A stretch of DNA of 64,000 nt, from the IMG/VR virus record IMGVR_UViG_3300030202_003905; one strand, written 5' to 3'. Below, piece by piece: positions 12,983 to 60,338 of the stretch (positions are counted from its first letter, which is position 1; every line of letters begins with the position of its first letter). The notes under the pieces are model-generated. The model saw nothing but the letters and a program-made list of their open reading frames with translations. It ran no database searches and had not been told where the DNA came from. A program made the translations under genes and the position numbers. This DNA is from an uncultured virus (IMG/VR IMGVR_UViG_3300030202_003905). Lineage: Duplodnaviria > Heunggongvirae > Uroviricota > Caudoviricetes.

Positions 12983-12983
12983 T

Positions 12984-14042: not shown

Positions 14043-14180
14043 ATGGCGAAAAGTAGTTCTACAACAAAAATAACATTTGGAAAACCTCCAAAAAAGAGAA
14101 AAGGTCAAGTTTCAAAAAATTGGTCAACCAATAAAAAATCAAAACTTTATAAAAAGCCTTATAAAGGGCAAGGCAAATAA
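14043..14180 (+). CDS. Small basic protein (45 aa, not in ORF track)
   Basis: MAKSSSTTKITFGKPPKKRKG...KKPYKGQGK*; stop overlaps the next ATG. Confidence 0.65.
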   Translation: MAKSSSTTKITFGKPPKKRKGQVSKNWSTNKKSKLYKKPYKGQGK

Positions 14181-14965: not shown

Positions 14966-14974
14966 AATAAATTA

Positions 14975-41235: not shown

Positions 41236-42580
41236 AAATCCCGTTTACTACTTCATATTTCGATCTTGGGGTCCTTAAATCATTTGGACCTATCCTATCT
41301 AACCAACCTTTACTTTTACTATGTGGTAATACTGCCCAAGATCTCGGCTCTTTGTCAGAGCAAAACTTCAAGAAAAAGCTTGCATTGTCTTTTGCTTTTT
41401 CTTCACCTAATCTCCATTCATTTAAATCTTCTCTATATATCTCTTCACCATCTTTATCGTGAGCTGTAACAGCCCAAAAATCACAATCTTCGTGTTCTGG
41501 TGTTTTAATTTGATCACCTGATATCCAAATATCTACACACCAATTTCTTCCGAAATCATTTAACCAATCTTCTTTAGTTGCATACATTTCAGGATTATCA
41601 ACGTAATTTGGTGTAGGTGGTTCTTGTCTTTGAGGCCAAGTATACTCCATAACCCCTCTTCTATCAAATTTAATTCCGGCATATCTTTCATAGTCTTCTA
41701 AAGTTCTTTCTTTACCAAAACCAAACTTACCAAAATCTATAGAATCAGGGTCTGAATCATCCATACCAAACAAAGTTCTATTTCTAAAATGACATGCATT
41801 GTTAACTGAAATCCAACCTGCTGTTCCATCAGAATCTACATCATGATCTTCCCAATGTTTATCTCTTCCTTCTCTCGTATATTCATGCCAACAAATCGTT
41901 TTATGAGGATGAAATAAATCGTAACCGTGAGTAAATGCTCTTACTGCAATGCTAATTTCTTCACCATGAAAATAATAATCTGGATCATGTGGGACTTCTT
42001 CACAAAATTTACCTAAAGTAAAACAAAAATGAGCTGAATAAAATCTTGATCTCATAGGCTCGACTCTGGTCATCCAATCTGGAATAGTAGAAGGTAAAAA
42101 GAAAATAGCTCCTTCAGGAATAAATCTATCATACTCCATAAACCACGGGTCTTTTTCTCTTCCATCTGGATCATTTGATGGTTTATAAGATGGTATATAC
42201 GCTGTTAATAAAGGCTTTTCATGACCCTTTTTTTGTAATTGATTCATCATATCAATACAAAGCGTATCCCACCCCGGGGCAAATCTATGATGTGAATCTA
42301 ATTGTAAAGTATATGTTTCGCCATCGTATTCATTTTGTACAATATTTCTAGCCCAACATACCCCTTTAGCTTCTTTCCAAGGTACATTAACCACTCTAAA
42401 TCTAGCATCATTTTCATACTCTGGAATATCATCAAATAGATCCCCTTCTTTAAATTGTCTACATATACCAAATCTTAAATTTTCTGGTTTATGAGCATTA
42501 TCTATACAACTCTTTAAAGTAATAGGTAGTTCTGGGTCTCTATACGAGGCAATTTGAATAAAAATAGTTTCGTCTTTCAT
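41222..42580 (-). CDS. GT60-type polypeptide/hydroxyproline alpha-GlcNAc transferase
   Basis: IFIQIASYRDPEL, GVCWAR, LQLDSHHRF, FHGEEISIAVRAFTHGYDLFHP. Confidence 0.85.
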   Translation of the reverse strand: MKDETIFIQIASYRDPELPITLKSCIDNAHKPENLRFGICRQFKEGDLFDDIPEYENDARFRVVNVPWKEAKGVCWARNIVQNEYDGETYTLQLDSHHRFAPGWDTLCIDMMNQLQKKGHEKPLLTAYIPSYKPSNDPDGREKDPWFMEYDRFIPEGAIFFLPSTIPDWMTRVEPMRSRFYSAHFCFTLGKFCEEVPHDPDYYFHGEEISIAVRAFTHGYDLFHPHKTICWHEYTREGRDKHWEDHDVDSDGTAGWISVNNACHFRNRTLFGMDDSDPDSIDFGKFGFGKERTLEDYERYAGIKFDRRGVMEYTWPQRQEPPTPNYVDNPEMYATKEDWLNDFGRNWCVDIWISGDQIKTPEHEDCDFWAVTAHDKDGEEIYREDLNEWRLGEEKAKDNASFFLKFCSDKEPRSWAVLPHSKSKGWLDRIGPNDLRTPRSKYEVVNGIFDNE

Positions 42581-42602: not shown

Positions 42603-44147
42603 TTACTTCAAGTTTGGATCCAGTTGTTTCTCAATCTTTTCCAGCCATCCTACATCTTTAACGCTCGGTATAACCGTATAACTTGTAGGTCTTGCATCGC
42701 AAACCAAACCTATTGGGAATCTTGCAGCATGTGGATCTTGTCTTTCGTCGTAAATTTCTTGAATTTTATCTATAGAAAAATCTTCTCTTACTAGTTCGTT
42801 TCCATCTTCGTCATGAACACCAACATACCAAAATTCAGTATCGTCATACGATTCGGGTAATTCTTCCCAAGGAATAAAAAAGTCAATACACCAATTTTTT
42901 AACCATTTAACGTCTTCATAAGGCGTACCGTCATTTGGATATACCGGATTAACCCCGTCTTTTACTTCTTGAGTAATAGCTCTTTTTCTAAAATGAATAC
43001 CTGAATAGTGTTGATATTCTTCTACTGTTCTAATATTACCGAAACCATATTCATCACCAAAATTTATTTGATTAGGATCTTCACCATCCATACCAAATAA
43101 AATACGATTTCTTTTATGGCACATTTCATTTACTTCCCACCAATCGTGTTTACGACCTTGTTTTTTATTACAATCATCCCAATGATGAGGTCTTCCTTTT
43201 CGAGTATACTCATGGTAAGCAATTATTTTGTTAGGGTGAAATAAATCATAACCATGTGTATATGCTCTTACTGCAATGCTAATTTCTTCTCCGTGGAAAT
43301 AATAATTAGGATCATGAGGTACTTCTTTACAAAACTGACCACTTGTAAAACAGAAATGAGCGGAATAAAATCTAGAAGGAATTGGTTCTCTTAATTCTTC
43401 ATCAAACATAGAAGTAGGTAAAAAGAAAATAGCTCCTTCAGGAATAAATCTATCAAATACCATCTTCCATGGGTCTGTTTCAAATCCATTTTCTATAGAA
43501 TACTCACCAGAATCATCACTATTTTCTAACCAAGGCTTATAACTTGTTATGTATCCTGTTAATAGAGGTTTCGGGTGACCTTTTTGTTGCAAGTAATAAT
43601 ACATGCTTTTCAATTTAGAATCCCAACCAGGAACAAATCGATGGTGAGAATCAATTGCTAAAGTAAATTCTTCTTCACAATACAAATGTTGAATAGAATG
43701 CCTTGCCCAACATGTACCATGACCTCTTTTATTATCTACGTCTATAATTTGGAATCTTTCATCCTTCATATAATCGTACATTTCTTTATCAAAATCATCT
43801 TCCATGTTATGTTGCCAGCAAATGCCAAACCTTAAATTTTCAGGGTTATCTGCATTATCTATCATACTAACTAAAGTTGGAATAAGTTCTGGGTCTCTAT
43901 ATGCAGCAATTTGAATGAATATTTGTTGATTACCTTTTAAATGGGAGGGAAAGTCTTCATAATAATTATCGCCTACAATATCTTCGTTTGTTAGAACATA
44001 TGGTTGTGGATCCTTTTCTGGTATTGAAACTACCCCTGAACTTCTTTCATGTTCAGAATGATCTACTTCTGATACTTCAGTGGTAGTTGTTTTTTCGGTA
44101 TTTTTATTTTTTAACCTACTCTTACGATAGATTTTTATTCCTGGCAT
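42603..44147 (-). CDS. GT60-type polypeptide/hydroxyproline alpha-GlcNAc transferase, tandem paralog
   Basis: IFIQIAAYRDPEL, GTCWAR, IDSHHRF, FHGEEISIAVRAYTHGYDLFHP. Confidence 0.85.
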   Translation of the reverse strand: MPGIKIYRKSRLKNKNTEKTTTTEVSEVDHSEHERSSGVVSIPEKDPQPYVLTNEDIVGDNYYEDFPSHLKGNQQIFIQIAAYRDPELIPTLVSMIDNADNPENLRFGICWQHNMEDDFDKEMYDYMKDERFQIIDVDNKRGHGTCWARHSIQHLYCEEEFTLAIDSHHRFVPGWDSKLKSMYYYLQQKGHPKPLLTGYITSYKPWLENSDDSGEYSIENGFETDPWKMVFDRFIPEGAIFFLPTSMFDEELREPIPSRFYSAHFCFTSGQFCKEVPHDPNYYFHGEEISIAVRAYTHGYDLFHPNKIIAYHEYTRKGRPHHWDDCNKKQGRKHDWWEVNEMCHKRNRILFGMDGEDPNQINFGDEYGFGNIRTVEEYQHYSGIHFRKRAITQEVKDGVNPVYPNDGTPYEDVKWLKNWCIDFFIPWEELPESYDDTEFWYVGVHDEDGNELVREDFSIDKIQEIYDERQDPHAARFPIGLVCDARPTSYTVIPSVKDVGWLEKIEKQLDPNLK

Positions 44148-44154
44148 CAAAAAT

Positions 44155-44182
44155 ATTTTACTAGTTTCCCCGGGGAGTTCAA
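44155..44182 (-). promoter_or_regulatory. Sigma70-type promoter of the GT60 operon (TTGAAC-16-TAAAAT) with a palindrome in the spacer
   Basis: Hexamers 7 nt upstream of ATG 44147; TCCCCGGGGA at 44167-44176. Confidence 0.55.
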
Positions 44183-44185
44183 CTG

Positions 44186-47100
44186 TTATACGTAAGTCAT
44201 GTTAATAGAATCTACACAAATATCTCCTTGATATGTATAAATTGTACTTCCAGATGTATAAAAGAAGGATATATATTGAGCTACAGTGGAAGGGTTAGAG
44301 TATGAAAAGGTTTTCTTAATCCACGACTGCGAACGACTCCCTTGCTGCGCACCTGTTAAGGTAGTGCTTCCTCTAGATGTAAATGAACTCGTACTAGGTG
44401 ATGACCCACCTGTAACTTCTAACGTACCTACATTACCTCCAAACATATAATACCAGAAACCACATGTAACTGTTTTACCGCTTGGACAACTATTACTTCT
44501 CATAATTATACCAAAAGATACACTAGGATAGTTTGGTGATGATGTTTCACAATAGATAAACCTATAACTACTGGAACTATTTTGAGTTCCAGATGTTGCC
44601 ATGGAACTTGAATCATTAACACCACCTGTTTGAACCCCGGTACCACCACTAGGTGTATTACCATAATCGCACATCCAACTTCTTGTTGTAGATGTTTTAC
44701 TACTACCAGTAGATACTCGATATGCACCAACATAATAACTACTACTTGGACCGGTTGATGGTGCTTGTAATGAAACTGCTCCTGATGAAGACGTTGTTGT
44801 AGGTGAATTGTTTACATTTTGAAATAATATAGTTGTGGCTGATACAGGACCACCTGATGGCGATTTAGTAGGCGTTCTTGTTTTAGTAGATGTTTTTGTT
44901 TTTGTTTTAGTACTCGTAGGTGTTCGTGTTTTACTTTTAGTAATAGATTTTGTTCTTGTAGGAGTACTCGTAGGAGTTTTTGTTTTGCTTTGCGTTATAG
45001 ACTTCGTTCTTGTTGGTGTTCTAGTTTTAGTTTTAGTACTAGTTGCTGTGTATGTAGGAGTACGTGTTTTACTTTGGGTGATTGATTTTGTACGCGTAGG
45101 TGTTCGTGTTTTACTTTGTGTGATTGATTTCGTTCTCGTAGGAGTGCGTGTTTTACTTTGTGTAATAGATTTAGTTCTTGTAGGTGTTCTGGTTTTACTT
45201 TGGGTGATTGATTTTGTTCTAGTAGGTGATACTGTTTTGGTTTGTGTGATAGATTTCGTTCTGGTCTGTGTGATAGATTTAGTTCTAGTAGGCGAAACGG
45301 TTCTTGTTGGCGTTCTAGTTTTAGTTTTAGTTTGGGTAATAGATTTTGTTCTAGTAGGTGAAACGGATCTTGTTGGTGTTCTAGTTTTAGTTTTAGTTTG
45401 TGTAATTGATTTCGTTCTCGTAGGAGTAACGGTACGTGTCGGGGTACGTGTTTTAGTTCTAGTGTTCGTAGACGTTCTTGTATATGTAGGTGTTCTTGTT
45501 CTTGTAGGTGTTCTTGTTCTCGTTCTCGTATATGTAGGTGATTGTGTTCTTGTGCGAGTAGGTGATTGTGTTCTGGTTTTTGTTTTGGTCTTCGTATACG
45601 TAGGTGATTGCGTTCTTGTAGGTGTTTGTGTTCTAGTTCTTGTAGGTGTTTGTGTTCTGGTTTTTGTTCTTGTAGGAGTACGTGTTTTACTTTGTGTAAT
45701 AGATTTCGTTCTCGTTGGTGTTCTGGTTTTAGTTTTCGTACTAGTTGCTGTGTATGTAGGAGATTGTGTTCTTGTTCTTGTTCTTGTAGGTGTTCGTGTT
45801 TTGCTTTGTGTGATAGATTTTGTTCTCGTTGGTGTTCGTGTTTTACTTTGTGTAATAGATTTCGTTCTCGTAGGTGTTCTGGTTTTAGTTTTCGTACTAG
45901 TAGGTGTTTGCGTTCTTGTATTTGTTGGTGATACGGATCTTGTAGGTGTTTGTGTTCTTGTTCTTGTAGGTGATTGCGTCCTCGTTCTTGTTTGTGTAGG
46001 GGTTCTCGTACGAGTAGGTGTTTGTGTTCTAGTTCTCGTTACTGTATTTGTAGGTGTTTGTGTAGGTGTTCTCGTTCTAGTTCTCGTTACTGTATTTGTA
46101 GGTGTTTGTGTTCTTGTGCGAGTAGGTGATTGTGATCTAGTAGGTGTTTGTGTTCTGGTTTTAGTTTGTGTAATTGATTTGGTTCTTGTGGGGGTGCGTG
46201 TTCTAGTAGGTGTTTGCGTTCTGGTTTTAGTTTGTGTAATTGATTTTGTTCTAGTAGGTGTTTGTGTGCGTGTTGCTGTTTGCGTTATAGATTTTGTACG
46301 CGTAGGTGTTTTTGTTCTTGTTCTTGTTCTAGTAGGTGTTTGAGATTGTGTTGGTGTTTGTGTTCGAGTAGGGGTTTGTGTTCTGGTTTTAGTTTGTGTA
46401 GGGGTTCTTGTTCTCGTAGGCGTTTGTGTTCTCGTCCTTGTTTGTGTTGGTGTTTGTGTTCTTGTTCTAGTAGGAGTTTGTGTCCTAGTTTTTGTATTTG
46501 TAGGTGTTTGAGTTATAGTTTGTGTAGGTGTTTGAGTTCTAGTTTTTGTTGGTGTTTGTGATCTCGTGGGTGTTTGCGTTCTGGTTTTAGTTTGTGTAAT
46601 CGATTTAGTTCTTGTAGGTGTCTGTGTACGTGTAGATGTTTGTGTTGGTGTTCTTGTTTGTGTAGATGTTTGAGTTTGAGAAGGTGTTCTTGTTCTTGAT
46701 CTTGTTTGTGTTTGAGTTTGTGTTTGTGATGGTGTTCTAGTCCTCGTTGATCCAGGTGTATCCGTTCTGGTAATTGTTCTAGTGCTTGTTGGTGTTTGTG
46801 TCCTGGTTTTAGTCTGTGTCGGTGTTTGTGTTGGTGTCTGTGTTCTAGTTTTAGTTTGTGTTCTTGTAGGTGTTTGTGTTCTAGTTTTAGTTTGTGTCCT
46901 TGTTCTAGTCTGCGTCGGTGTTTGTGTTGGTGTTTGTGTTCTGGTTCTCGTTGGAGTTTGTGTTCTTGTTTGGGTAGATGTTTGAGTTTGAGAAGGTGTT
47001 CTTGTTCTTGTAGGCGTTTGCGTTCTGGTTTGTGTTGGCGTTTGTGTTCTAGTTTGTGTAGGTGATTGTGTTCTAGTAGGTGTTTGTGTTCTTGTTTTAG

Positions 47101-50100
47101 TTTGTGTAGGTGTTCTTGTTTGTGTCGGTGTTCTTGTTCTTGTAGGCGTTTGTGTTCTAGTTTTGGTTCTTGTAGCAGTTCGTGTACTAGTTTTAGTGCG
47201 CGTTTGTGTAGGTGTCTGAGTCCGTGTTTTAGTTTGTGTAGCTGTTCTGGTTGCTGATGGCGTTCTAGTTCTTGTAACAGTTTGAGTAGGAGTTTGAGTT
47301 CTGGTTTGTGTTGGTGTCTGAGTTCTGGTTTGTGTTGGTGTTTGTGTCCTAGTTCTGGTTTGAGTAGGTGTTCTGGTTCGAGTAGGGGTTTGTGTTCTTG
47401 TTCTTGTTCTTGTAGGTGATTGTGATCTAGTAGGTGTTTGCGTTCTGGTTCTAGTTTGGGTTCTGGTTCTTGTTTGCGTCTTTGTTTGTGTAGGTGTTTG
47501 TGTTTGTGAAGGTGTTCTTGTTCTAGTTACCGTTTGTGATCTAGTTGGTGTTTGCGTTCTCGTCCTTGTTTGTGAAGGTGTTCTTGTTCTAGTTACAGTA
47601 GGCGTTTGTGTTTGAGTTTGTGTTTGTGTAGGTGTCTGCGTTCGTGTAGATGTTTGTGTAGATGTTCTAGTTTGTGTTGGTGTTTGTGTTCTTGTAGGTG
47701 TCTGTGTTCTGGTTTTAGTTTGTGTGGGTGTTCTAGTCTGCGTTCTTGTTCTTGTTGTTGTAGGAGTTTGTGTTCTCGTCCTTGTTTGTGTAGGTGTTCT
47801 AGTCTGAGTTTGTGTTTGTGTTTGAGAAGGTGTTCTCGTTTGTGTTGGTGTTCTGGTTCTAGTTGGTGTTTCAGTTCTAGTATTAGTAGGTGTTTGTGTA
47901 GGTGTTCTTGTTCTGGTTCTAGTAACGGTGCTAGTAGCAGTCCTACTTTGAGTAGGGGTTCTCGTTCTAGTTGGAGATTGTGTACGTGTTTGAGTCTGTG
48001 TAGGTGTTTGTGTCCTAGTTTTAGTTTGTGTAGGTGTTCTTGTTTGCGTCGGTGTTCTTGTTTGTGTGCGTGTTTGAGTCTGGGTAGGAGTTTGTGTCCT
48101 GGTTTTTGTTTGTGTTCTAGATTGTGTAGGTGTCTGTGTTCTGGTTTTAGTTTGTGTAGGTGTTCTTGTTTGAGTAGATGTTTGTGTTTGCGTTGGCGTT
48201 CTTGTTCTTGTAGGTGTTTGTGTTCTAGTTTTAGTTTGCGTTCTAGTTCTAGTCTGTGTACTAGTTCTTGTAATAGTTTTTGTAGCAGTTTGAGTAGGTG
48301 TTTGAGTTCTGGTTTTAGTATTAGTAGGTGTTCTAGTTTGTGTAGGTGTTTGTGTTTGCGTCGGTGTTTGAGTCTGTGTAGCTGTTTGAGTCGGTGTTTG
48401 TGTTTGTGAAGGTGTTCTAGTACGTGTTGCAGTCTGTGTAGTTGTTCTTGTTTGAGTAGTTGTTCTTGTTTGAGTAGGAGTTTGTGTACGAGTACCTGTT
48501 TGTGTGGTCGTTGGAGATTGTGTTCTAGTTTTGGTTTGAGTAGCCGTTCTAGTAGGCGTTCTCGTTTTCGTTTTTGTCTGGGTTGGTGTCTGGGTTGGTG
48601 ATAAAGATCTAGTAGGTGTTTGCGTTCTAGTTTGTGTTGGTGTCTGGGTTCTTGTACGAGTAGGTGATTGTGTTCTAGTTTGTGTTTGTGTTGCTGTTCT
48701 AGTTTGCGTGGGTGTCTGTGTTCGTGAAGCTGTTTGTGTTGGTGTTCTTGATTGAGTAGGTGTTTGTGTTCTTGTTTTAGTTTGTGTAGGTGTTCTTGTT
48801 TGTGTTGCCGTCCTAGTTCTTGTAACGGTATTAGTTGGAGTTTGAGTTTGTGTTTGAGTTGGTGACTGAGTCGGTGTTTGTGTACGCGTTTTAGTTTGCG
48901 TTGGTGTTCTTGTAGATGTTTGAGTAGGGGTACGTGTTCTGGTTTTCGTCTTGGTTGCTGTAGCTGTTTGAGAAGGTGTTCGTGTTGGTGTAGATCCAGG
49001 CGTATCCGTTCTTGTTATAGTTCTGGTTTGTGTAGGTGTTTGTGTTCGTGTCGCTGTTTGAGATTGAGTAGGAGTTTGTGTTCTCGTTGTAGTTTGAGTA
49101 GGTGTCTGAGTTGGTGTTTGTGTTCTTGTTCTCGTAGGTGTTTGGGTTCTGGTTCTAGTTTGTGTAGTTGTTTGTGTAGATGTTTGAGTAGGTGTTCTTG
49201 ATTGAGTAGGTGTTTGCGTTCTGGTTCTAGTTTGTGTAATTGATTTTGTAACTGTTGGTGTTCTTGTTTGTGTAGGTGTTTGTGTTCGAGTTTTAGTCTG
49301 CGTTCTAGTTTGTGTTTGAGATGGTGTTCTAGTTTGTGTGGCTGTTCTTGTTCTTGTTCTTGTTTGTGTAGGTGTTCTAGTTTGAGTTGTAGTTCTTGTC
49401 TGTGTTTGTGTTGGTGTTTGTGTAGGTGTTTGCGTTCTAGTGGCTGTTTGAGATGGTGTTCTTGTATTAGTAGGTGTTTGTGTTCTGGTTTTAGTTTGTG
49501 TTCTTGTTCTTGTACTTGTGGCTGTTCTAGATAGTGTAGGTGTTTGAGTCCTAGTTGGTGTTTGTGTTCTTGTTTTAGTTTGAGTAGCCGTTCTAGTTTG
49601 AGTTATAGATTTAGTCCTAGTCTGGGTTGGTGTCTGGGTTGGTGAAAGCGTTCTAGTTATTGTTTGTGTAGGTGTTCTTGTTTGTGTAGACGTCTTTGTA
49701 GTTGTTTGAGTAGCTGTTTGCGTTCTTGTTCTTGTCTGTGTTTTAGTTTGTGTTGGTGTTCTTGTTTGTGTAGAAGTTTTTGTACTAGTTTGGGTTGGTG
49801 TTTGTGTTTGGGTAGCTGTTTGTGATGGTGTTTGTGTCCTCGTTTGTGTTGGTGTTTGTGTTTGAGTAGCTGTTCTACTTGGTGTAACAGATTGAGTAAT
49901 TGATTTTGTTACTGTTTGTGTTGTTGTTTGTGTTGGTGTTTGTGTACGTGTTTTTGTAGGTGTTTGTGATCTTGTAGATGTTTTTGTTGGTGTTGCACCT
50001 TGCGTTTGGGTTTGAGTAATTGATTTTGTTACTGTTTGTGTAGTGGTTTGAGTCTGTGAAGGAGATTGTGTTCTCGTCTTTGTTTGTGTAGGAGTTCTTG

Positions 50101-52441
50101 TAGAAGTTTGGGTAGGGGTTCTTGTTTGAGTAGATGTTCTTGTAGGAGTTTGTGTACTTGTTTTAGTTTGGGTTGCTGTTCTACTTGGTGTAACAGATTG
50201 AGTAATTGATTTTGTTACTGTTTGAGATGGTGTTCTTGTATTAGTAGGTGTTTGTGTCTGTGTTTGAGTCTGTGTAGCCGTTCTAGTTGACGTTCTCGTT
50301 CTTGTTTGTGTAGGTGTTCTACTTTGTGTAGGCGTTTGTGTAGGTGTCTGTGTTTGTGTCCTGGTTGGAGATTGAGATCTTGTTGGTGTTTGTGTTCTAG
50401 TTCTAGTTGCTGTCCTTGTAGGTGATTGCGTTCTAGTTTGTGTTTGAGATGGAGTTCTACTACTTGTTACTGTATTTGTAGGTGTTTGTGTTGGTGTCTG
50501 CGTTCTTGTTTTTGTTTGTGTGGGTGTTTGAGTTTGTGTTTGAGTGCTCGTTTGTGTTGGTGTTTGTGTTTGAGTACCTGTTTGTGTTGACGTTCTTGAT
50601 TGCGTTGGTGTTTGTGTTCTGGTAGATGATTGCGTTGGTGTTCTTGTTTCTGTTGGTGTTCGTGTGCTTGTCGCTGTTTGAGTCGGTGTTCGTGTGCTCG
50701 TCGCTGTTGGAGATTGAGTTGGTGTTTGTGTTCTCGTTCTTGTAGGTGTTTGTGTTTGGGTTGGTGTTTGAGTAATAGATTTTGTAGGTGTTTGTGTTTG
50801 TGTACTCGTTTGTGTTGGTGTCTGGGTTGGTGTTTGTGTTGGTGTTTGTGTTCTTGTTTTTGTTTGTGATGGGGTTCTGGTAGCTGTTGCTCCTTGAGTT
50901 TCAGTTTGTGATGGTGTTCTGGTACTTGTTGGGGTACGTGTTTGTGTAGCTGTCTGTGTCGGGGTTTGTGTTTGTGATGAGGTTCTTGTATTTGTAGCTG
51001 TCTGTGTCGGTGTCTGAGTTCTAGTTTTGGTTGGTGTTTGGGTTCTAGTCTGGGTTCTTGTTCTTGTATTTGTAGGTGATTGAGTAGGTGTTTGTGTTTG
51101 AGATGCTGTTCTAGATTGTGTAGCTGTTCTAGATGCTGTTACTGTATTGGTTGGTGTTTGAGTTCTAGTCTGGGTAGGTGTTTGGGTTCTTGTCTGGGTA
51201 GACGTTTGTGTTGGTGTCGCTCCTTGTGTCTCTGTTCTGGTTTGAGTAGACGTTCTAGTAGTTGTACGCGTAGAGGTTTGAGTTTGTGTCTGTGTTTGAG
51301 TAGATGTTCTAGTCTGAGTTGGTGTCTGTGTTTGAGTAGCTGTTCTACTCTGAGTAGCTGTTCTAGATTGGGTTGTTGTCTGTGTAGGTGTTTGAGTTCT
51401 GGTTTTAGTATTAGTAGGTGTTCTGGTCTGAGTAGGTGTTTGAGTTTGTGTTACTGATTGAGTTGGTGTTTGTGATCTGGTAGATGTTTGAGTTTGTGTT
51501 CTAGTCTGAGTAGGTGTTCTTGAATTTGTCGCTGTTTGAGTTGGTGTTTGAGTTGGTGTTGCTCCTGGAGTATCTGTAGGTGTTTGTGTTCTCGTTTGAG
51601 TCTGTGTAGCTGTTTGAGTCGGCGTTTGTGTTTGTGTACGCGTTCTTGTTTGTGTTGCCGTCCTAGATTGTGTAGCAGTATTTGATGGTGTTAATGTTTG
51701 AGTAGGAGACTGTGTAGGTGTTTTTGTTTGTGTTGTTGTTCGTGTTTGTGTTTGAGTGGGTGTCTGTGTAGACGTTTTTGTAGGTGTTGTTGATCTCGTA
51801 GGGGTAGGTGTAGGTGTAACAGAACTATCATAAATCTTCATCGGCAAAAAGCCTTCTAATGCAGACCCCGCTGATAATGCTTGATTTTTAAAAAAGGCAA
51901 TATAACTGCTATTTTGTTTTATTAATGTAAAACCTTGAAGAAACTCAGGTGCTCCGGGTTGATATACTGCATAACTAGGTGATGTTAAATCGTCATTTGC
52001 TGCAACCAAAAATACTCTATTTGTGTAATTGGAAGCGCTTAATACTGCAAACGCAGACGTTACAAGCCCGGTTCCTGTAAAAATATTAGGTTCACCTGCT
52101 GTAGTTGACGTAAAAAACGAAACCCCTGTTTTAAGAATTAATTGTTCATCATCGTTATCATCAGAAGGTGGTATAAAGTCCACACTAGTAGCACCACTTA
52201 AAGGTAACGATGATGTACCTCTAACAAACATCATATAGGAACTACCAGGAATAAATTGCGTAAATCCTTGCAAGAATTCCGGTGCACCTGGAGTGTATTT
52301 TATCAAAGAAGCGTTTGTAATAGCTTCACCCGCAAACATTGAATTAATGTTAGAAGCGGCAGCGAATAAAGTATCGGAAACAGTTAATTCTGTATTGCCT
52401 ACATATCTGCTTACTTGACCGGTATAAAATACTTGCCCCAT
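44186..52441 (-). CDS. Giant mucin-like protein (2751 aa): N-terminal duplicated domain, ~2300-aa Thr-X repeat stalk, C-terminal MAM domain
   Basis: Uninterrupted frame; (TQ/TP/TR/TK)n; C-terminal TPSGGTG, FIYCETS, FWYYMFGGNVGTLEV, QG...W, GDICVDSI. Confidence 0.85.
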   Translation of the reverse strand: MGQVFYTGQVSRYVGNTELTVSDTLFAAASNINSMFAGEAITNASLIKYTPGAPEFLQGFTQFIPGSSYMMFVRGTSSLPLSGATSVDFIPPSDDNDDEQLILKTGVSFFTSTTAGEPNIFTGTGLVTSAFAVLSASNYTNRVFLVAANDDLTSPSYAVYQPGAPEFLQGFTLIKQNSSYIAFFKNQALSAGSALEGFLPMKIYDSSVTPTPTPTRSTTPTKTSTQTPTQTQTRTTTQTKTPTQSPTQTLTPSNTATQSRTATQTRTRTQTQTPTQTATQTQTRTQTPTDTPGATPTQTPTQTATNSRTPTQTRTQTQTSTRSQTPTQSVTQTQTPTQTRTPTNTKTRTQTPTQTTTQSRTATQSRTATQTQTPTQTRTSTQTQTQTQTSTRTTTRTSTQTRTETQGATPTQTSTQTRTQTPTQTRTQTPTNTVTASRTATQSRTASQTQTPTQSPTNTRTRTQTRTQTPTKTRTQTPTQTATNTRTSSQTQTPTQTATQTRTPTSTRTPSQTETQGATATRTPSQTKTRTQTPTQTPTQTPTQTSTQTQTPTKSITQTPTQTQTPTRTRTQTPTQSPTATSTRTPTQTATSTRTPTETRTPTQSSTRTQTPTQSRTSTQTGTQTQTPTQTSTQTQTQTPTQTKTRTQTPTQTPTNTVTSSRTPSQTQTRTQSPTRTATRTRTQTPTRSQSPTRTQTQTPTQTPTQSRTPTQTRTRTSTRTATQTQTQTQTPTNTRTPSQTVTKSITQSVTPSRTATQTKTSTQTPTRTSTQTRTPTQTSTRTPTQTKTRTQSPSQTQTTTQTVTKSITQTQTQGATPTKTSTRSQTPTKTRTQTPTQTTTQTVTKSITQSVTPSRTATQTQTPTQTRTQTPSQTATQTQTPTQTSTKTSTQTRTPTQTKTQTRTRTQTATQTTTKTSTQTRTPTQTITRTLSPTQTPTQTRTKSITQTRTATQTKTRTQTPTRTQTPTLSRTATSTRTRTQTKTRTQTPTNTRTPSQTATRTQTPTQTPTQTQTRTTTQTRTPTQTRTRTRTATQTRTPSQTQTRTQTKTRTQTPTQTRTPTVTKSITQTRTRTQTPTQSRTPTQTSTQTTTQTRTRTQTPTRTRTQTPTQTPTQTTTRTQTPTQSQTATRTQTPTQTRTITRTDTPGSTPTRTPSQTATATKTKTRTRTPTQTSTRTPTQTKTRTQTPTQSPTQTQTQTPTNTVTRTRTATQTRTPTQTKTRTQTPTQSRTPTQTASRTQTPTQTRTATQTQTRTQSPTRTRTQTPTQTRTQTPTRSLSPTQTPTQTKTKTRTPTRTATQTKTRTQSPTTTQTGTRTQTPTQTRTTTQTRTTTQTATRTRTPSQTQTPTQTATQTQTPTQTQTPTQTRTPTNTKTRTQTPTQTATKTITRTSTQTRTRTQTKTRTQTPTRTRTPTQTQTSTQTRTPTQTKTRTQTPTQSRTQTKTRTQTPTQTQTRTQTRTPTQTRTPTQTKTRTQTPTQTQTRTQSPTRTRTPTQSRTATSTVTRTRTRTPTQTPTNTRTETPTRTRTPTQTRTPSQTQTQTQTRTPTQTRTRTQTPTTTRTRTQTRTPTQTKTRTQTPTRTQTPTQTRTSTQTSTRTQTPTQTQTQTQTPTVTRTRTPSQTRTRTQTPTRSQTVTRTRTPSQTQTPTQTKTQTRTRTQTRTRTQTPTRSQSPTRTRTRTQTPTRTRTPTQTRTRTQTPTQTRTQTPTQTRTQTPTQTVTRTRTPSATRTATQTKTRTQTPTQTRTKTSTRTATRTKTRTQTPTRTRTPTQTRTPTQTKTRTQTPTRTQSPTQTRTQTPTQTRTQTPTRTRTPSQTQTSTQTRTQTPTRTRTQTPTQTPTQTRTRTQTKTRTQTPTRTQTKTRTQTPTQTPTQTKTRTQTPTSTRTITRTDTPGSTRTRTPSQTQTQTQTRSRTRTPSQTQTSTQTRTPTQTSTRTQTPTRTKSITQTKTRTQTPTRSQTPTKTRTQTPTQTITQTPTNTKTRTQTPTRTRTQTPTQTRTRTQTPTRTRTPTQTKTRTQTPTRTQTPTQSQTPTRTRTRTKTPTRTKSITQTATRTQTPTRTKSITQTKTRTQTPTRTRTPTRTKSITQTKTRTQTPTRSQSPTRTRTQTPTNTVTRTRTRTPTQTPTNTVTRTRTQTPTRTRTPTQTRTRTQSPTRTRTQTPTRSVSPTNTRTQTPTSTKTKTRTPTRTKSITQSKTRTPTRTKSITQSKTRTPTRTRTRTQSPTYTATSTKTKTRTPTRTKSITQSKTRTPTRTKTRTQTPTRTRTQTPTRTQSPTYTKTKTKTRTQSPTRTRTQSPTYTRTRTRTPTRTRTPTYTRTSTNTRTKTRTPTRTVTPTRTKSITQTKTKTRTPTRSVSPTRTKSITQTKTKTRTPTRTVSPTRTKSITQTRTKSITQTKTVSPTRTKSITQSKTRTPTRTKSITQSKTRTPTRTKSITQSKTRTPTRTKSITQSKTRTPTYTATSTKTKTRTPTRTKSITQSKTKTPTSTPTRTKSITKSKTRTPTSTKTKTKTSTKTRTPTKSPSGGPVSATTILFQNVNNSPTTTSSSGAVSLQAPSTGPSSSYYVGAYRVSTGSSKTSTTRSWMCDYGNTPSGGTGVQTGGVNDSSSMATSGTQNSSSSYRFIYCETSSPNYPSVSFGIIMRSNSCPSGKTVTCGFWYYMFGGNVGTLEVTGGSSPSTSSFTSRGSTTLTGAQQGSRSQSWIKKTFSYSNPSTVAQYISFFYTSGSTIYTYQGDICVDSINMTYV
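44860..51820 (-). repeat. Degenerate 6-nt-period coding repeat (Thr-X dipeptides)
   Basis: Plus strand dominated by gtttgt/gtaggt/gttctt hexamers. Confidence 0.95.
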
Positions 52442-52457
52442 TGACTATATTTATTCT

Positions 52458-52736
52458 TTAGTTAAGATGTATATTGCTATTAGTCAACTTAAATGTATAT
52501 TCTTTAGAATTAGCTCTATCAAAGTAAGTAACATCAGCATCTTTATATTCATTATTACTCCAGTTTATGAAGCATTTTGGTTGGTTGTTAACATAAACAC
52601 CGGTACTATTAATACCAGCATCTCCTTCAACAATAGGTTTAAATTCTAATGTATCATCTTTACCTGCTTGAAAAGTAACACCATGTGAATTTACATGCGG
52701 TGCACCACCTGTTCCTATTAATTTTACTTTTTCCAT
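52458..52736 (-). CDS. 92-aa stand-alone paralog of the C-terminal domain of the upstream mucin-like protein
   Basis: LIGTGGAPHVNSHGVTFQ versus LTGTGGAPHPTQDSVTFQ; TAATG coupling. Confidence 0.75.
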   Translation of the reverse strand: MEKVKLIGTGGAPHVNSHGVTFQAGKDDTLEFKPIVEGDAGINSTGVYVNNQPKCFINWSNNEYKDADVTYFDRANSKEYTFKLTNSNIHLN

Positions 52737-54127
52737 TAGAAAGCTCTTGTTCCATCCAAGAATGTACTACTATAAAACGTACCAGCAATTTGAACTCTAA
52801 AGTTCTGACCGGTGTAGTTTGATATAGAATATGGTACAATAGATTTAATTACCCCACTAACTGTAATAGTCATTGAAGCTACTGTAGGTGTTCCAGTTCC
52901 GATACAATCATATTCAAATACATCACCACCAGCAGACTGGAATGTAACACTGTCTTGTGTTGGATGAGGTGCTCCACCTGTTCCGGTTAAAGCGCATGTA
53001 TATGAAGTAATTGGGGTACGTGTTTGTGTAGGTGTTTGTGTGGTTGTTGGTGATTGTGTTATAGATACTGAAATAGTAGATGTCTGAGTAGGTGTTTGTG
53101 TTGTTGTAGGTGACTGTGTAATAGATTTTGTTAGCGTAGGAGTAGTTGTTGGTGTCTGAGTTTGAGTTTGGGTAGGTGTCTGAGTTGGTGTCTGTGTCTG
53201 TGTTTGAGTTTGTGTAGGTGTAGGTGATTGAGTTTTTGATACAGAAATAGTGGATGTTTGTGTTGGTGTTTGAGTTTGTGATTGTGTAATAGACTTAGTT
53301 ACTGTCTGAGTAGGTGTTTGCGTAGGTGATTGAGTAATTGTTTTAGTTTGTGTTATAGATACTGAAATAGTAGATGTTTGTGTGGGTGTCTGAGTAGGTG
53401 TTTGAGTTTGTGATTGTGTTGGTGTTTGGGTTTGTGATTGCGTAGGGGTTTGTGTTGGTGATTGTGATATAGTTTTTGTTTGTGTAATTGATTTAGTTAC
53501 CGTTTGGGTAGGTGTCTGTGTTTGTGATTGTGTACGTGTTTGTGTAGGGGTTTGAGTTGCTGTTGCTGCTGCTGTTGCTGATCTTGTCTGTGTAGGTGTT
53601 CGTGTTCTTGTCTGGGTAGTTGTTTGTGTCGGTGTTTGTGTTGGCGATACAGCAGGTGAAGCTGATTGGGTAATTGATTTTGTAGGTGTTTGGGTAACTG
53701 TTTGTGTTGGTGTCTGAGTTAGAGTTTGGGTAGGTGTCTGTGATTGAGTAATTGATTTTGTTGGTGTTTGAGAAGCCGTATTTGTAATTGTTTGTGAAAC
53801 TGTTTGAGTCTGGGTTTTTGTCCTAGTTTGTGTGGGTGTTCTAGTTTTTGTAACGGTACTTGTAGGTGTGGTGCCCCGGGTATTAGAGACTGTAACTGTT
53901 TGAGTAGGAGTGGGTGACGCACCGTATCTCTCGGCAAAAGGTACTTTATGTTTCTTCTGAGGGAGACCTATAGGAATTAACCCACCTTGCATACTACTAC
54001 GTTGCGCTTGAGGGTTTGGATCGAAAATATTCGGATTTATAGATCGATTCCGATCAACTTTTCTTACAGGACCTTGATTTGGGTCAGATCTATCAAGGGG
54101 ACTTCCTCTGTCAAAATATTTAGCCAC
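52736..54127 (-). CDS. Mucin-like Thr-rich protein (463 aa) with C-terminal globular domain
   Basis: TQTP/TKSITQ repeats; GTG start 5 nt after TAAATA. Confidence 0.8.
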   Translation of the reverse strand: MAKYFDRGSPLDRSDPNQGPVRKVDRNRSINPNIFDPNPQAQRSSMQGGLIPIGLPQKKHKVPFAERYGASPTPTQTVTVSNTRGTTPTSTVTKTRTPTQTRTKTQTQTVSQTITNTASQTPTKSITQSQTPTQTLTQTPTQTVTQTPTKSITQSASPAVSPTQTPTQTTTQTRTRTPTQTRSATAAATATQTPTQTRTQSQTQTPTQTVTKSITQTKTISQSPTQTPTQSQTQTPTQSQTQTPTQTPTQTSTISVSITQTKTITQSPTQTPTQTVTKSITQSQTQTPTQTSTISVSKTQSPTPTQTQTQTQTPTQTPTQTQTQTPTTTPTLTKSITQSPTTTQTPTQTSTISVSITQSPTTTQTPTQTRTPITSYTCALTGTGGAPHPTQDSVTFQSAGGDVFEYDCIGTGTPTVASMTITVSGVIKSIVPYSISNYTGQNFRVQIAGTFYSSTFLDGTRAF

Positions 54128-54156: not shown

Positions 54157-55281
54157 CTATGATGTTGTACCTGTTTGAGTTGGTGTTCTGGTTCTCGTCC
54201 TTGTTTGTGTAATAGATTTTGTTCTGGTTTGCGTCGGTGTTCTGGTTCTCGTTGCCGTCGCACTACTGTTCTGAGTAGGTGATACAGATGCAGTTACTGC
54301 AGGTGTTCCAGTATTTGTCTTTGATTTCGTTCTCGTTGGTGTTGCTGTTACACCAGCAGAAGGTGTTCCTGATCTTGAAACAGTTCTTGTTTGAGTTTGT
54401 GTAGATGTTCTCGTTGGTGTTTGTGTGGGTGTTTCGGTTGCTGTTTGTGTAGGTGTTTGAGTAGCTGTTCTAGACCTCGTTGCTGTCTGTGAAGGTGTTC
54501 TTGTTCTAGTTTGCGTTGATGTTTCGGTTTGAGATTTAGTTTGTGTGGGTGTTCTTGATCTTGTAGGGGTTTGCGTTCTCGTCTTTGTTTGTGTAGGCGT
54601 TTGGGTAGGCGTTTCGGTTGTTGTTTGTGTAGGTGTTCTTGTTTTAGTCCCTGTAGGGGATTGTGTTACAGTTTGTGTTGGTGTTCTTGTTCTTGTAGGT
54701 GTAGGTGTAACAGCAGTGGTGCCTGTTTTTGTTTTAGTTAGTGTAATTGATTTAGTTACTGTTTGTGTCTGTGTCTGAGTTTGTGTTTGTGTCTGTGTTT
54801 GAGTCTGTGTTTGCGTAGTTGTAGCTGTTTGTGAAACTGTTTGAGTCTGAGTTTTTGTCCTAGTAGGTGTTTGTGTTTGAGTTTGAGTGACACTTACTGT
54901 CACGGTAGGAGATACAGTAACTGTTTGGTCCTGTGTTGGAGTAGGTGTTGGAGATTCGTTTGGGGTTGATGTTGTTGTTCTCGTTTGAGTTGATGTAGGT
55001 GTAACGCTTTTCGTTACAGTAGGTGTCGGTGTGGGTGTTGCAAATGTTAGGGTTGCAAACGGAGTAGGGGTTCTTGTTTTTGTTTGGGTTTGTGAAGACG
55101 TTATTGTTGTTGTCGCGGTTGCTTCCGGTGTTCCTGTGACTGTTTTTGTAGTTGTAGCTTCAGGAGTAGAGGTAATTGATTGAGTAACCGTGGGTGTTTG
55201 AGTAACCGCTGGTGTTGGGGTAACAAATTGTTGTACCCCTAGGTTGACATAATCAATTACATTGCGTTTCTTTTGTGCCAC
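54157..55281 (-). CDS. Mucin-like Thr-rich protein (374 aa)
   Basis: ~20-aa unique N-terminus then Thr-X repeats to the end; GTG start 5 nt after TAAATA. Confidence 0.8.
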   Translation of the reverse strand: MAQKKRNVIDYVNLGVQQFVTPTPAVTQTPTVTQSITSTPEATTTKTVTGTPEATATTTITSSQTQTKTRTPTPFATLTFATPTPTPTVTKSVTPTSTQTRTTTSTPNESPTPTPTQDQTVTVSPTVTVSVTQTQTQTPTRTKTQTQTVSQTATTTQTQTQTQTQTQTQTQTQTVTKSITLTKTKTGTTAVTPTPTRTRTPTQTVTQSPTGTKTRTPTQTTTETPTQTPTQTKTRTQTPTRSRTPTQTKSQTETSTQTRTRTPSQTATRSRTATQTPTQTATETPTQTPTRTSTQTQTRTVSRSGTPSAGVTATPTRTKSKTNTGTPAVTASVSPTQNSSATATRTRTPTQTRTKSITQTRTRTRTPTQTGTTS

Positions 55282-55344: not shown

Positions 55345-57267
55345 TCAAGGTGTAGCTGATGGTGTTCTTGTTCTGGTTCTTGTGTGTGATGCAGTTTGTG
55401 TAGGAGTATTTGTCTTTGATTTCGTTCTCGTTGGTGTTTGTGTAGCTGTTGGTGTTTGACTTCTAGTTCTCGTTCTCGTCCTTGTTTGAGTAATAGATTT
55501 TGTTCTTGTTTGTGTAGATGTTTGTGTAGGTGTTCTTGTTCTCGTAGGTGTTTGTGTTCTTGTAGATGTTTGTGTTTGAGTTGGTGTCTGTGTTGTTGAT
55601 TGTGTTTGTGTCTGTGTTGGAGTTGCATCTTGTGTTCCAGATGGTGTTCTCGTTCTAGTAACTGATTGTGTAATAGATTTTGTTCTGGTTTGTGTTTGTG
55701 ATTGCGTTGGTGTTTGTGTCGGAGTTGCACCTTGTGTTCCAGAAGGCGTTCTCGTTCTTGTAGGTGTTCCTGTAGCCGTTCTTGTTGTTGTAGCTGTTCT
55801 AGTTTTAGTATTTGTAGGTGTTACGGTAGGTGTTTGTGTTGGTGTTTGTGTTTGCGTCGGTGTTTGTGTAGGTGTTCCAGTTGGTGTTTCAGTTGGTGTT
55901 TGTGTTCTAGTTTGTGTAGGTGTTTGAGTTGGTGTGGATGTTTGTGTTTGCGTCGGTGTTTGTGTAGGACTAACCACTGGTGTTGGTGTTTCAGTTTGAG
56001 ATGGTGTCCTGGTTCTTGTAACAGTATTAGTAGGAGTTTGAGTCTGAGTCGGTGTTTGAGTTTGAGAAGATGTCTGCGTTGGAGTTCTAGATTGCGTTCT
56101 CGTTTGTGTTGGTGTTTCAGTTTGAGATGGTGTCCTGGTTCTAGTTTTTGATTGTGTTGGTGTTTGTGTTTGTGTAGCTGTTTGTGTCTGAGTCTGTGTT
56201 TGTGATTGTGTAGGTGACTGAGTTCTAGTTTGTGTAGGTGTTTGTGTTGGTGTTCTAGTTGGAGTAGACGATTGTGTCTTAGATTTAGTTACTGAAGGCG
56301 TAACTGTTTGTGATGGTGTTCTTGTTCTTGTTGGAGAAGCCGTTTTAGTAGAGGTTTGTGTTTGTGTAGATGTTCTAGTACGTGTTGCAGTCTGTGTTGC
56401 AGTCTGTGTTTGCGTTTGTGTCTGTGACTGAGTCTGTGTTTGTGTTTGAGAAGCTGTTCTCGTTTGTGTTGGTGTTTCAGTTTGAGATGGTGTTCTAGTT
56501 CTTGTAACTGATTGTGTAATAGATTTTGTTCTGGTTTGTGTCGGTGTCCGTGTACTTGTTTGTGTAGATGTTCTGGTTTGTGTTGGTGTTTGTGTTGGGG
56601 TAGCAGAACTCCCATAGGTTGCAGATACAGTTACTGATGGTGTTTGAGTTGGTGTTCTAGATCTCGTTGCTGTCTGAGTCTGTGTCTGAGTCTGAGTTTT
56701 TGATTGAGTAGGTGATTGTGTTGTAGTATTAGAAGGGGTTCTAGTTCTTGTTGTAGAAGGTGATTGAGTAGGTGTTTGTGTTTGTGTAACTGTTTGGGTA
56801 GGTGTTCTAGTTTGTGTGGGTGTTCTTGTGTAGGTGATTGTTTGTGTTTGTGTTTGTGATCTGGTTCTTGTTTGCGTAGCTGTTCGAGTGACCGTCCTTG
56901 TAGGTGTATTTGAACTAGTTGCTGTTTGTGATGGGGTTCTTGTTCTTGTTGGAGAAGATGTTTTAGTACATGTTGGCGTTCTCGTCTCTGTTGGTGTTTG
57001 TGTCTGTGTTTGAGTTTTAGTTTTTGTCTGGGTGGCTGACCTTGTGGGTGTTTGAGTAGTAGTTTGAGAAGGTGTCCTGCTTATTGTCGTTGTTTGAGTA
57101 GGTGTTCTTGAATTGGTAGGTGTTTGTGTAACCGTTCTTGTTTGTGTTGGTGTTTCGGATCTGGTTGGTGTAGCCCCAGCACCAAGAGGAAATTTACCTA
57201 TATCACTCTGAATAACCGGAATCGCCTTTCCGTATTGTTTAATTAATTCTGGTACTGTTATAGGCAC
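55345..57267 (-). CDS. Mucin-like Thr-rich protein (640 aa)
   Basis: ~30-aa unique N-terminus then Thr-X repeats; GTG start 5 nt after TAAATA. Confidence 0.8.
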
Positions 57268-57683: not shown

Positions 57684-58370
57684 ATGGCAGATCAGATTAC
57701 AAAGATCTTAATAAGAAGTGGTACAACAGAAGAAAAAGATACAATCACTTTGGATGCCGCTGAATTAGGTTACGCAACAGATTCTAAAAAACTTTGGGTT
57801 GGGGATGGCGAGACTAAAGGCGGAAATATTGTTGGGCAAAAATTTTATATTAGTAACCTAAACACTGACCTTAACAAAACTAATACAATTCAATATGCAG
57901 TATCTGGTGATTTATGTTTTGATTTGCAAGACAATACCTTAAAAGCTCTATCTGGTTCAAATGCATTAACACCAGAAGAGTGGGCTATAGTTGCAAATGC
58001 TAGAGGAGATAGTGCAACAGAAGGAACAGTTACCGAAATATTTACAGGTAATGGGTTAATGATTAATGGTGATACATCTAATACAACAACACTTATGACT
58101 ACAGGAACGGTGGGTGTTAATATAGATAATATTTCAACCGGATCAAAACCAGAAATTCTTCAATTAAGTTTATCGGGAATAAGAGCTGACTGGGGTGTAC
58201 TATATCCTATAGGATCAGTTATATGGTCTAGTGATATTAATTATTCTAGCAACCCAACTGAGGTAGGTAATTGGTTAGAAGGATCTGGCCTAGTTTGGGC
58301 TCCAGCAGGTACGTCTGAAACATTAGGATCAGGTGCTTCATCACTATCTGCATGGAAACGTACCGGATAA
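57684..58370 (+). CDS. Virion fibre protein with hyaluronate-lyase/Mtd-type N-terminal domain
   Basis: ILIRSGT...LDAAELGYATDSKKLWVGDG; LYPIGSV; TATAAATA 5 nt before ATG. Confidence 0.7.
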   Translation: MADQITKILIRSGTTEEKDTITLDAAELGYATDSKKLWVGDGETKGGNIVGQKFYISNLNTDLNKTNTIQYAVSGDLCFDLQDNTLKALSGSNALTPEEWAIVANARGDSATEGTVTEIFTGNGLMINGDTSNTTTLMTTGTVGVNIDNISTGSKPEILQLSLSGIRADWGVLYPIGSVIWSSDINYSSNPTEVGNWLEGSGLVWAPAGTSETLGSGASSLSAWKRTG

Positions 58371-59158: not shown

Positions 59159-59517
59159 TATCGTTCGAAAAATTTTACCTAACAGAAGTAGGTAATGCAT
59201 CGGGGCATTTTGATAGAGTCAAAAATGGCCCCGATATTTTAGCTGTAGGTAGACCTCTAGGTAGTCTCAAAGCAGGGCAAGGAGGGTTTAAAGGAGGGGG
59301 AAATATTCACGTGCCAGATGTTTCTCAAATTAATATACCCACTGAATTATTAAAAGGTAAAAAATGTAAGCGTTGTGAAATGCTTAAAAAGAAGAAAAAT
59401 AAAAAGGATAGTGTAGCTCCTGATAAATTAGATGCACAAGCCGTAGTTGATGAACCAATGAAAAATACGCCTCAATTTATTTCTACTAATGCAGGAACCC
59501 AAGGCGGTTGGTATTAA
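59155..59517 (+). CDS. Putative internal head protein
   Basis: N-terminus MISFEKFYLTE resembles the T4 capsid-targeting sequence. Confidence 0.55.
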   Translation: MISFEKFYLTEVGNASGHFDRVKNGPDILAVGRPLGSLKAGQGGFKGGGNIHVPDVSQINIPTELLKGKKCKRCEMLKKKKNKKDSVAPDKLDAQAVVDEPMKNTPQFISTNAGTQGGWY

Positions 59518-60338
59518 GGTAAATTTAATTCTTGTCCAATTTGAAGTTTTTTAGGATTAACTCCAGGGTTAGCTTTTATTAAATCGTTTACATTAACTCT
59601 TTGAATATTTGCAATTTTAGTAAATGTATCGCCTTGTTTAACTATAACAGAAGTTTCTTCAGAATCTTTTTTGCCTTTAGATGGATCAACAAATTGTCTA
59701 TCTTTTAAAAATAAATCAAAGAACATTTTATTTCTTCTAGTTAACGGTTTACCTTGAGCAGATCTTTCATATTCTTTTACCATCCCATCAATATTATTAG
59801 CTAACGCTGCTCTCGTAAATTTCGGAAATTCTTTTACAAATTTAGGTCCTAAATTATATGCAAAATCTATAAACATTTGTTTTCTTTTCATATCTAGATT
59901 TTCATACTCTTTTCCTAATTTTTGCTTTACAATATTTTCAGCATTCATTAAATCTCTTTTAAGAAGATTTTCTGCATCACTATTAGATATTCCTTGAGAA
60001 TACCTTTCCGTTCTTCCAAGTTTATGACCATAAGCTATTGTATCTGTTCCGCCTTCATAGCTAGCATGTGGATACCACCTACCATTTTTAAAGCCTGTTT
60101 TACCGGCATTTTCTGCTGATTTAATATATTCAACAAATTCTCTATCCATTTTTGGATCCATCTCACCTATTGGTTTTTCTATAGCAGTATTGGCTACATC
60201 AGAAGCAGTTAAGTTATTAGCACCCACCATAGAACCTAAACCTATTGCTGCAGCTGCTCCAGCGCCTTTAATTATATCTTTCAATCCTTCTTCTTGAACT
60301 GTATAAGCTTCATAGATAAGATAATTATCTTTGTTCAT
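59514..60338 (-). CDS. GH24 (T4-lysozyme-like) muramidase with C-terminal LysM
   Basis: IKSAE...TIAYGH, DFAYNLG..FPKF, RRN; VKQGDTFTKIA...LIKANP...LQIGQELNLP. Confidence 0.85.
   Translation of the reverse strand: MNKDNYLIYEAYTVQEEGLKDIIKGAGAAAAIGLGSMVGANNLTASDVANTAIEKPIGEMDPKMDREFVEYIKSAENAGKTGFKNGRWYPHASYEGGTDTIAYGHKLGRTERYSQGISNSDAENLLKRDLMNAENIVKQKLGKEYENLDMKRKQMFIDFAYNLGPKFVKEFPKFTRAALANNIDGMVKEYERSAQGKPLTRRNKMFFDLFLKDRQFVDPSKGKKDSEETSVIVKQGDTFTKIANIQRVNVNDLIKANPGVNPKKLQIGQELNLP

Follow-up and report, generated by a model that had tools for sequence, protein, structure and literature searches.

A giant threonine-stalk protein with a MAM-family tip, encoded beside GT60-family glycosyltransferases in an uncultured virus: a candidate mucin-like tether

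The serine-rich-repeat proteins (SRRPs) of Gram-positive bacteria carry alternating hydroxyl residues, vary in length between strains, and are encoded in clusters with the priming GlcNAc transferases GtfA and GtfB (PMC6973325). In animals, zonadhesin joins MAM, mucin and VWD domains (PMC1325057), and in Dictyostelium and T. cruzi enzymes of the GT60 family start mucin-type O-glycans (PMC8724618). Mycobacteriophages encode glycosyltransferases and have glycosylated particles, the glycans lying on capsid and tail-tube C-termini (Freeman 2023, cited in PMC12619734). Here we analyse a giant gene (44186..52441, minus strand, ATG start) in a 64,000-nucleotide stretch of DNA from an uncultured virus (IMG/VR record IMGVR_UViG_3300030202_003905), the whole of which we call the window. 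Its 2751-aa product consists of an N-terminal domain (N-domain), a (T/S-X)n stalk and a tip of the MAM family, and genes for enzymes of Pfam family PF11397 adjoin it. In the literature searched, largely outside subscription journals, we found no description of a phage MAM-tipped Thr stalk or of a phage GT60 system, and the word "mucin" occurs zero times in the available portions of a moraphage paper (PMC12619734) and a jumbo-phage review (PMC7824862), with nothing pertinent in those of PMC12014285 either.

The gene is genuine and its product has three parts. The N-domain, aa 1-205 (51827..52441), and the C-terminal part, aa 2530-2751, are non-repetitive; between them lies the stalk of 2324 aa (aa 206-2529; 44855..51826), and the tip proper spans aa 2539-2751 (44189..44827), all on the minus strand. 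An earlier interpretation of this DNA made from its letters (the sequence-only reading) had proposed domains of about 205 and 220 aa flanking a repeat of about 2300 aa, and the borders found, 205/2324/222 aa, confirm it. The protein has no hydrophobic segment (maximum Kyte-Doolittle value for a 19-mer, 1.19), hence no signal peptide or membrane segment.

Thr or Ser occupies 1156 of the 1162 alternate positions of the stalk, whose repeat unit is a dipeptide; the residues in between are chiefly Gln (346), Arg (301), Pro (225) and Lys (100). With 1056 Thr, 160 Ser and 225 Pro among 2324 aa, it has the long Thr/Ser/Pro-rich domain of mucin-type O-glycoproteins. It is also strongly polycationic, with 401 Arg and Lys against 7 Asp and Glu, and towards the tip the fraction of Arg plus Lys climbs from 0.11 to 0.25. 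SRRPs, too, place a hydroxyl residue at alternate positions, and they share variable length, a variable binding region kept away from the anchor, and intracellular priming enzymes in the gene cluster. The phage protein differs in using Thr instead of Ser, in its cationic intervening residues and in its reverse polarity, with a conserved N-domain and a C-terminal tip. Moreover, none of signal peptide, LPXTG, accessory Sec or GtfA/GtfB was seen, the scanned neighbours being phage structural genes and PF11397. By analogy, the design is thus most like that of SRRPs rather than of zonadhesin, although membership of the SRRPs fails.

The N-domain itself contains two units of about 100 aa that are 33% identical (E 4e-11). 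It found no match in Pfam, PHROG, NCBIfam, a PDB profile search or cultured phages, and its Atlas matches (0.79-0.90) are unnamed and serve as leads only. An alignment search with the N-domain did recover 57 metagenome loci, whose best segments were 38-100% identical; we analysed 52 of them as a family and left out five partial matches. A tract follows the N-domain in 46 of the 52 loci, whereas five end at a contig edge and one has an early stop. Eight homologues are complete with their tip (2508-3519 aa, with stalks of about 2100-3100 aa), some of these being near-copies of one another or of the contigs L002 and L004 introduced below. All eight keep the N-domain, an alternation register of at least 0.99 and the MAM domain; the seven tips scanned all pass Pfam MAM (27.9-46.9 bits), and the eighth is identical to a tip that had already passed. 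The charge gradient is present in 9/9 full-length proteins, in which the Arg plus Lys fraction rises from 0.09-0.13 in the first stalk quarter to 0.24-0.28 in the last. In more distant homologues, about 40-48% identical in the N-domain, all four scanned (L328, L338, L343 and L346) have LamG domains within the stalk, and another, L331 (17789-18931), has a very Cys-rich region in place of the MAM tip. The conservation of the N-domain and its position would suit an anchor, and we propose it as the attachment module.

Could the length of the stalk be an artefact of assembly? Its DNA is of low complexity, and six homologous open reading frames (ORFs) end inside the stalk without N bases (L308, L313, L324, L332, L336 and L344), in one of which, L313, MAM and GT60 still lie downstream. 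These interrupted ORFs reflect either frameshift errors or real truncations or slippage variants. However, the longest exact repeat in the stalk DNA is only 51 bp, and 6845 of its 6942 31-mers are distinct. Independent contigs carry it in frame: L001 agrees with aa 1-1505 with 7 codon differences, and variant proteins are represented by their last 2220 aa in L002 and their last 2278 aa in L004. Furthermore, 14 of the 24 runs listed, from 5 studies, contain 0.76-0.91 of the sampled words of positions 43000-52900; these runs are mostly labelled marine or seawater metagenome, and one may be the source sample. Together with the stalks of the complete homologues, these data rule out the assembly expansion that the sequence-only reading had named as its own possible undoing, and we regard an artefactual length as vanishingly improbable.

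Pro makes up about 10% of the stalk at irregular gaps of 4-16 residues, without a dominant period, and the chain is predicted to be disordered or a bottle-brush. A folded beta stalk instead of a mucin, either a fold-back ribbon or a Thr-faced solenoid, possibly ice- or surface-binding, would share the two-residue periodicity of a beta strand. A mirror beta-hairpin was rejected: its best mutual information was 0.069, against a mean of 0.061 and a maximum of 0.072 in 20 block shuffles. A fixed-period solenoid was rejected on the Pro spacing. As irregular Pro, a freely varying length and the insertion of domains into the stalk likewise speak against a folded stalk, we consider it highly unlikely. 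The contour length comes to 580-790 nm, while a worm-like chain gives 36-198 nm end to end at assumed persistence lengths of 1-30 nm. The reach of "several hundred nm" suggested earlier therefore holds as a contour length and upper bound but not as a proven reach.

Scanned alone, the tip matched the Pfam MAM family (PF00629) at 27.7-28.0 bits, above the gathering cut-off of 26.4 (E about 2e-6); the match was not shown when the whole 2751-aa protein was scanned at once. An AlphaFold2 model of the tip built on a 24-row alignment reached pLDDT 84 and pTM 0.86, whereas a single-sequence model without the alignment was useless (pLDDT 32). For the model, Foldseek ranks 1-7 were all MAM domains. Comparison of the modelled fold, the alignment behind which included MAM homologues, gave a VIA Z of 15.7 with the MAM structure 8yt7 (rmsd 2.7 over 164 residues) and 14.1 with a second MAM, as opposed to 12.9 for the best non-MAM match, to carbohydrate-binding modules. 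The closest MAM structures were those of scavenger receptor C, enteropeptidase and neuropilin. A single-sequence PDB search with the tip returned 0 matches, cultured phages gave none, and among other large phage records MAM was found in 1/16, that one being a homologue of the giant gene. The MAM identification made in the sequence-only reading is upheld by the Pfam score and by the modelled jelly-roll; of the five motifs quoted for it, four are present exactly, but "QG..W" has five residues between G and W and not two.

Animal MAM domains have four conserved cysteines. The tip lacks this pattern, as close phage homologues already miss two of its five Cys and none is invariant across the 24 rows. 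It belongs with Cys-poor, bacterial-type MAMs, "bacterial-type" and "animal-type" being read from domain architecture and not from taxonomy. Indeed, several of 115 MAM matches have bacterial architectures, one with a type IX secretion system (T9SS) sorting domain. In a quick tree of 59 rows, made with no bootstrap, the eight tips from phages formed a group with two similar rows (SH-aLRT 96) among the Cys-poor bacterial-type domains and away from multi-MAM proteins. The eukaryotic flavour that the architecture had at first sight is thereby weakened. As for the parallel drawn earlier with zonadhesin, MAM and a Thr/Ser/Pro-rich, mucin-like region do occur in one chain, but Pfam scans of the phage protein found no VWD, its MAM is single and C-terminal, its Cys are unconserved, and it has no signal or membrane segment; the resemblance is convergent. 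Among the profile matches were also four other small proteins with a MAM-like domain and a phage-like look (P0085, P0086, P0111 and P0101).

The tip diverges unusually fast. Compared with L002, its ratio of non-synonymous to synonymous change (dN/dS) was 0.92 at a synonymous divergence (dS) of 0.15, whereas three neighbouring genes gave 0.02-0.08 at dS 0.12-0.17. The codon differences were 43 non-synonymous and 12 synonymous in the tip versus 49 and 160 in the neighbours (Fisher p 1e-13). Against L004 the ratio was 0.40. Likewise, identity between the homologues L321 and L322 is 100% for the N-domain and 98% for the stalk but only 75% for the tip. Such divergence suggests the pattern expected of a ligand-binding tip, in keeping with the receptor-binding role that had been proposed for it. 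T4-type tail fibres, which are trimeric, also have a distal, fast-evolving binding tip. The phage stalk, in contrast, is predicted to be disordered or a bottle-brush, and no fibre repeat, trimerisation or chaperone domain was matched in the 2751-aa protein by Pfam or PHROG. This agrees with the earlier statement that the design, a stalk plus a tip, is unlike canonical trimeric fibres.

Next to the giant gene lie two glycosyltransferase genes of family PF11397, which we take to be CAZy family GT60. Copy b (42603..44150, minus strand; 232.5 bits, dN/dS 0.08) begins 35 nt after the giant-gene stop and is followed by copy a (41222..42580, minus strand; 243.7 bits, dN/dS 0.02), the cut-off being 21 bits for both. 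D95-S96-H97 and H232 are kept in both copies and in at least 98% of 118 aligned homologues; we presume that this DxH-type motif and distal His are the metal and donor motifs of GT60. A single-sequence PDB search with the enzymes gave 0 matches. Across the family, GT60 lies directly 3' of the giant gene in 7/8 complete homologues, and the eighth locus ends 61 nt past the stop. Six window proteins tested, the GT60s among them, have no hydrophobic segment; therefore both their synthesis and any modification of them should take place in the cytoplasm. Further along, a gene for a fusion of an FkbM methyltransferase, HtrL/YibB and a weak GT2-like match below cut-off (38614..41235, minus strand) is a candidate glycan extender or modifier. 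Comparable eukaryotic systems are the protist mucins and their enzymes, T. cruzi TcOGNT-2 and Dictyostelium Gnt2, which pair a Thr-rich domain with an enzyme of the same Pfam family (PMC8724618, PMC3769586); the phage enzymes, whose activity is predicted, differ in having no membrane segment, and there is no Golgi and no GPI anchor. Neither the two GT60 genes nor three further Thr-tract genes described below, had been noticed in the sequence-only reading.

Glycan genes are also scattered elsewhere in the window. Positions 6181-15915 (plus strand) hold GT1-type, galactosyltransferase-like, GT2-like, nucleotidyltransferase and PfkB kinase genes. A weak sulfotransferase match below cut-off at 21469-22191 (plus strand) could make glycans anionic; the start of 27281-28057 (minus strand) resembles it by eye, without a sulfotransferase match.

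Metagenomes contain at least 7,925 close homologues of the PF11397 family. Among viral GT60 loci, Thr tracts lie within 10 kb in 15/39, with many different tips, and a 12-unit tract occurs anywhere on the contig in 25/38, including 11/11 of those above 100 kb. Two records, G075 and G085 (those of L031 and L041), have about 1900 tract matches each, none of them within 10 kb of GT60. Only 4/50,697 phage records contain GT60: Xoo-sp13, XacN1, CM1 and RAS14. Three of these four were tested for Thr tracts and gave 516, 494 and 286 matches, the reversed pattern giving 57, 41 and 14; five large phages outside the four gave 0, 3, 8, 0 and 0, those listed being Ser-rich, under a stricter pattern, a difference in stringency that weakens the contrast. 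Among relatives by capsid, nearly all of them fragments, PF11397 occurs in 3/37, and the sole complete record (G089) is without it.

XacN1 deserves particular attention because it is in culture. Like the system proposed here, it has phage-encoded glycosyltransferases, glycosylated particles, a GT60 (ORF334, 46% identical) and Thr-tract ORFs. At least two bands of its virions are Schiff-positive (PMC5852040), a point in favour of a glycosylated tether. Its Thr-tract proteins ORF180 and ORF190 (L293 5435-9214 and 15915-16556) are candidate GT60 acceptors. They differ from the giant protein in that their tracts measure 80-140 aa, and a PF00629 scan of large phage records found no MAM in XacN1.

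The gene content of the window is that of a T4-like myovirus: Pfam and PHROG matches identify a major capsid protein gp23, prohead protease, head closure, adaptor and tail-tube proteins, and the best cultured matches to the capsid are only about 32% identical. A 7-nt A/T motif (52448..52454, minus strand) lies 13 nt before the giant-gene start and resembles the T4 late promoter. Of its 23 occurrences in the window, 12 stand 12-16 nt before a start, versus about 3% expected near starts; the 12 include the prohead protease, a neck gene and all four Thr-tract genes. Besides the giant gene the latter are, upstream of it on the minus strand, a 463-aa protein with a small C-terminal domain (52736..54127), a 374-aa protein that is almost all Thr tract after about 20 aa (54157..55281), and a 640-aa protein that is almost all tract after about 30 aa (55345..57267). 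The 374- and 640-aa proteins have no tip, each with its own upstream motif. A 92-aa orphan gene (52458..52736, minus strand) encodes, on its own, a paralogue of the C-terminal domain found in the 463-aa protein (52736-53020; 35% over 60 aa, E 1e-10).

We favour, at somewhat better than even chances, the interpretation that the giant protein is a late, virion-attached, O-glycosylated mucin-like tether of a T4-like marine phage, glycosylated by the phage's own enzymes. The protein would be made late, in the cytoplasm, alongside head and neck proteins. The soluble GT60 pair would add HexNAc to alternate Thr/Ser residues, at about 1200 sites, and neighbouring enzymes might extend or modify the glycans, turning the chain into a stiffer, protease-resistant bottle-brush. 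The conserved N-domain would dock on the particle. The exchangeable tip, MAM here and LamG or Cys-rich in distant homologues, would bind a ligand that varies, most likely a polysaccharide of the host surface or of a gel, and in this way the tether could keep the phage close to its host until infection through the tail begins. Its reach would likely be about 100-200 nm in still water and up to 0.6-0.8 um when stretched. A bolder version, in which the GT60 pair and modifying enzymes give the phage a self-made glycocalyx of charge-graded bottle-brushes 0.6-1 um long, docked by the orphan domain and fishing for polysaccharides with swappable MAM or LamG tips, is tentative, and we lean against it in that full form.

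Several observations weigh against a glycosylated tether. For a mucin, a net charge near +390 is unusual. The N-domain is without a recognised fold or family in the Pfam, PHROG, NCBIfam and PDB profile searches. The 7-nt motif was derived from the giant gene, could be a translation signal, and is absent upstream of the GT60 genes. A tip dN/dS near 1 could equally fit relaxed selection or recombination. Pairing of GT60 with Thr tracts is not obligatory: among 46 tract-bearing viral contigs, mostly fragments and drawn from 50 loci among at least 145 matches listed, PF11397 occurs in only 11, in 5/11 of those above 100 kb and in 2/10 near-complete ones. Several GT60 contigs are near-copies, and 4/11 large ones have only 3-10 tract matches, within the range of controls. 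Because the GT60 family also includes the Skp1 hydroxyproline transferase (PMC8724618), family membership does not fix the acceptor. In XacN1, the proteins behind the at least two Schiff-positive virion bands are unnamed in the text available, and ORF334 is one of two glycosyltransferases (PMC5852040).

Some of these points, namely the charge of 401 Arg and Lys versus 7 Asp and Glu, its rise towards the tip in 9/9 proteins, and the lack of PF11397 in 35/46 of the tract-bearing contigs listed, would equally suit a virion tether that is un- or hardly glycosylated, a polycationic disordered chain that adheres by its charge to anionic cell surfaces or marine polysaccharide, the GT60s having a different substrate. 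However, charge alone does not need a strict Thr/Ser register over 2000-3000 aa, GT60 abuts the giant gene in 7/8 homologues, and a naked, disordered 2300-aa chain would be exposed to proteases. We therefore judge a bare polycation quite unlikely.

Electron microscopy showed no tail fibres on XacN1 (PMC5852040, in the portion available), which also weighs against a tether and fits the idea that the giant protein is no outer appendage at all: it might be packed in the head, there to bind DNA or to be ejected, or it might be released at lysis and act, in glycosylated form, as a decoy or a gel that shields or clumps the progeny. The high positive charge, the two neighbouring Thr-tract proteins without any folded domain, and the lack of a recognised capsid- or tail-binding domain agree with such a role. 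On the other hand, disordered chains are in general hard to see in negative stain, the N-domain is conserved, and a variable jelly-roll tip with LamG substitutes fits an external ligand. An internal or released protein is in our opinion unlikely, with a small but real chance of being right.

What is new here is a family whose orphan N-domain and charge gradient are conserved and whose tips, MAM or LamG, are exchangeable and show a measured excess of change, together with a cultured test system. If the mucin-like tether is real, large aquatic phages carry out mucin-type O-glycosylation themselves and meet their hosts with flexible glycoprotein tethers and not only rigid fibres, which would matter for how often phage and host meet in dilute water and for adhesion to marine gels, and would give a role to a glycosyltransferase family abundant in metagenomes. 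If the glycocalyx version also holds, it would define a class of viral adhesins that converged on the design of bacterial SRRPs and on that of mucin adhesins in animals, that negative-stain electron microscopy would hardly reveal, and that would give large phages a wider capture radius in dilute seawater. XacN1, which has the enzyme as well as Thr-tract proteins and whose virion glycoprotein bands await an explanation, offers the test. A soluble enzyme able to glycosylate Thr repeats densely in bacterial cells would, moreover, be of use in producing synthetic mucins.

Several minor observations complete the picture of the window. In one of two metatranscriptome runs, four short contigs match the GT60s and the tip at more than 99%; with DNA carry-over uncontrolled, they are no evidence of expression. 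Ten N bases at 16791-16800, an assembly gap, interrupt a 440-aa ORF (16788-18110). Beside the Thr-tract block are genes for an Mtd_N-domain protein (57684-58370, plus strand) and a lysozyme-LysM protein (59514-60338, minus strand). Finally, a QueF-like gene at 20559-21467 (plus strand) provides a lead for 7-deazaguanine DNA modification.

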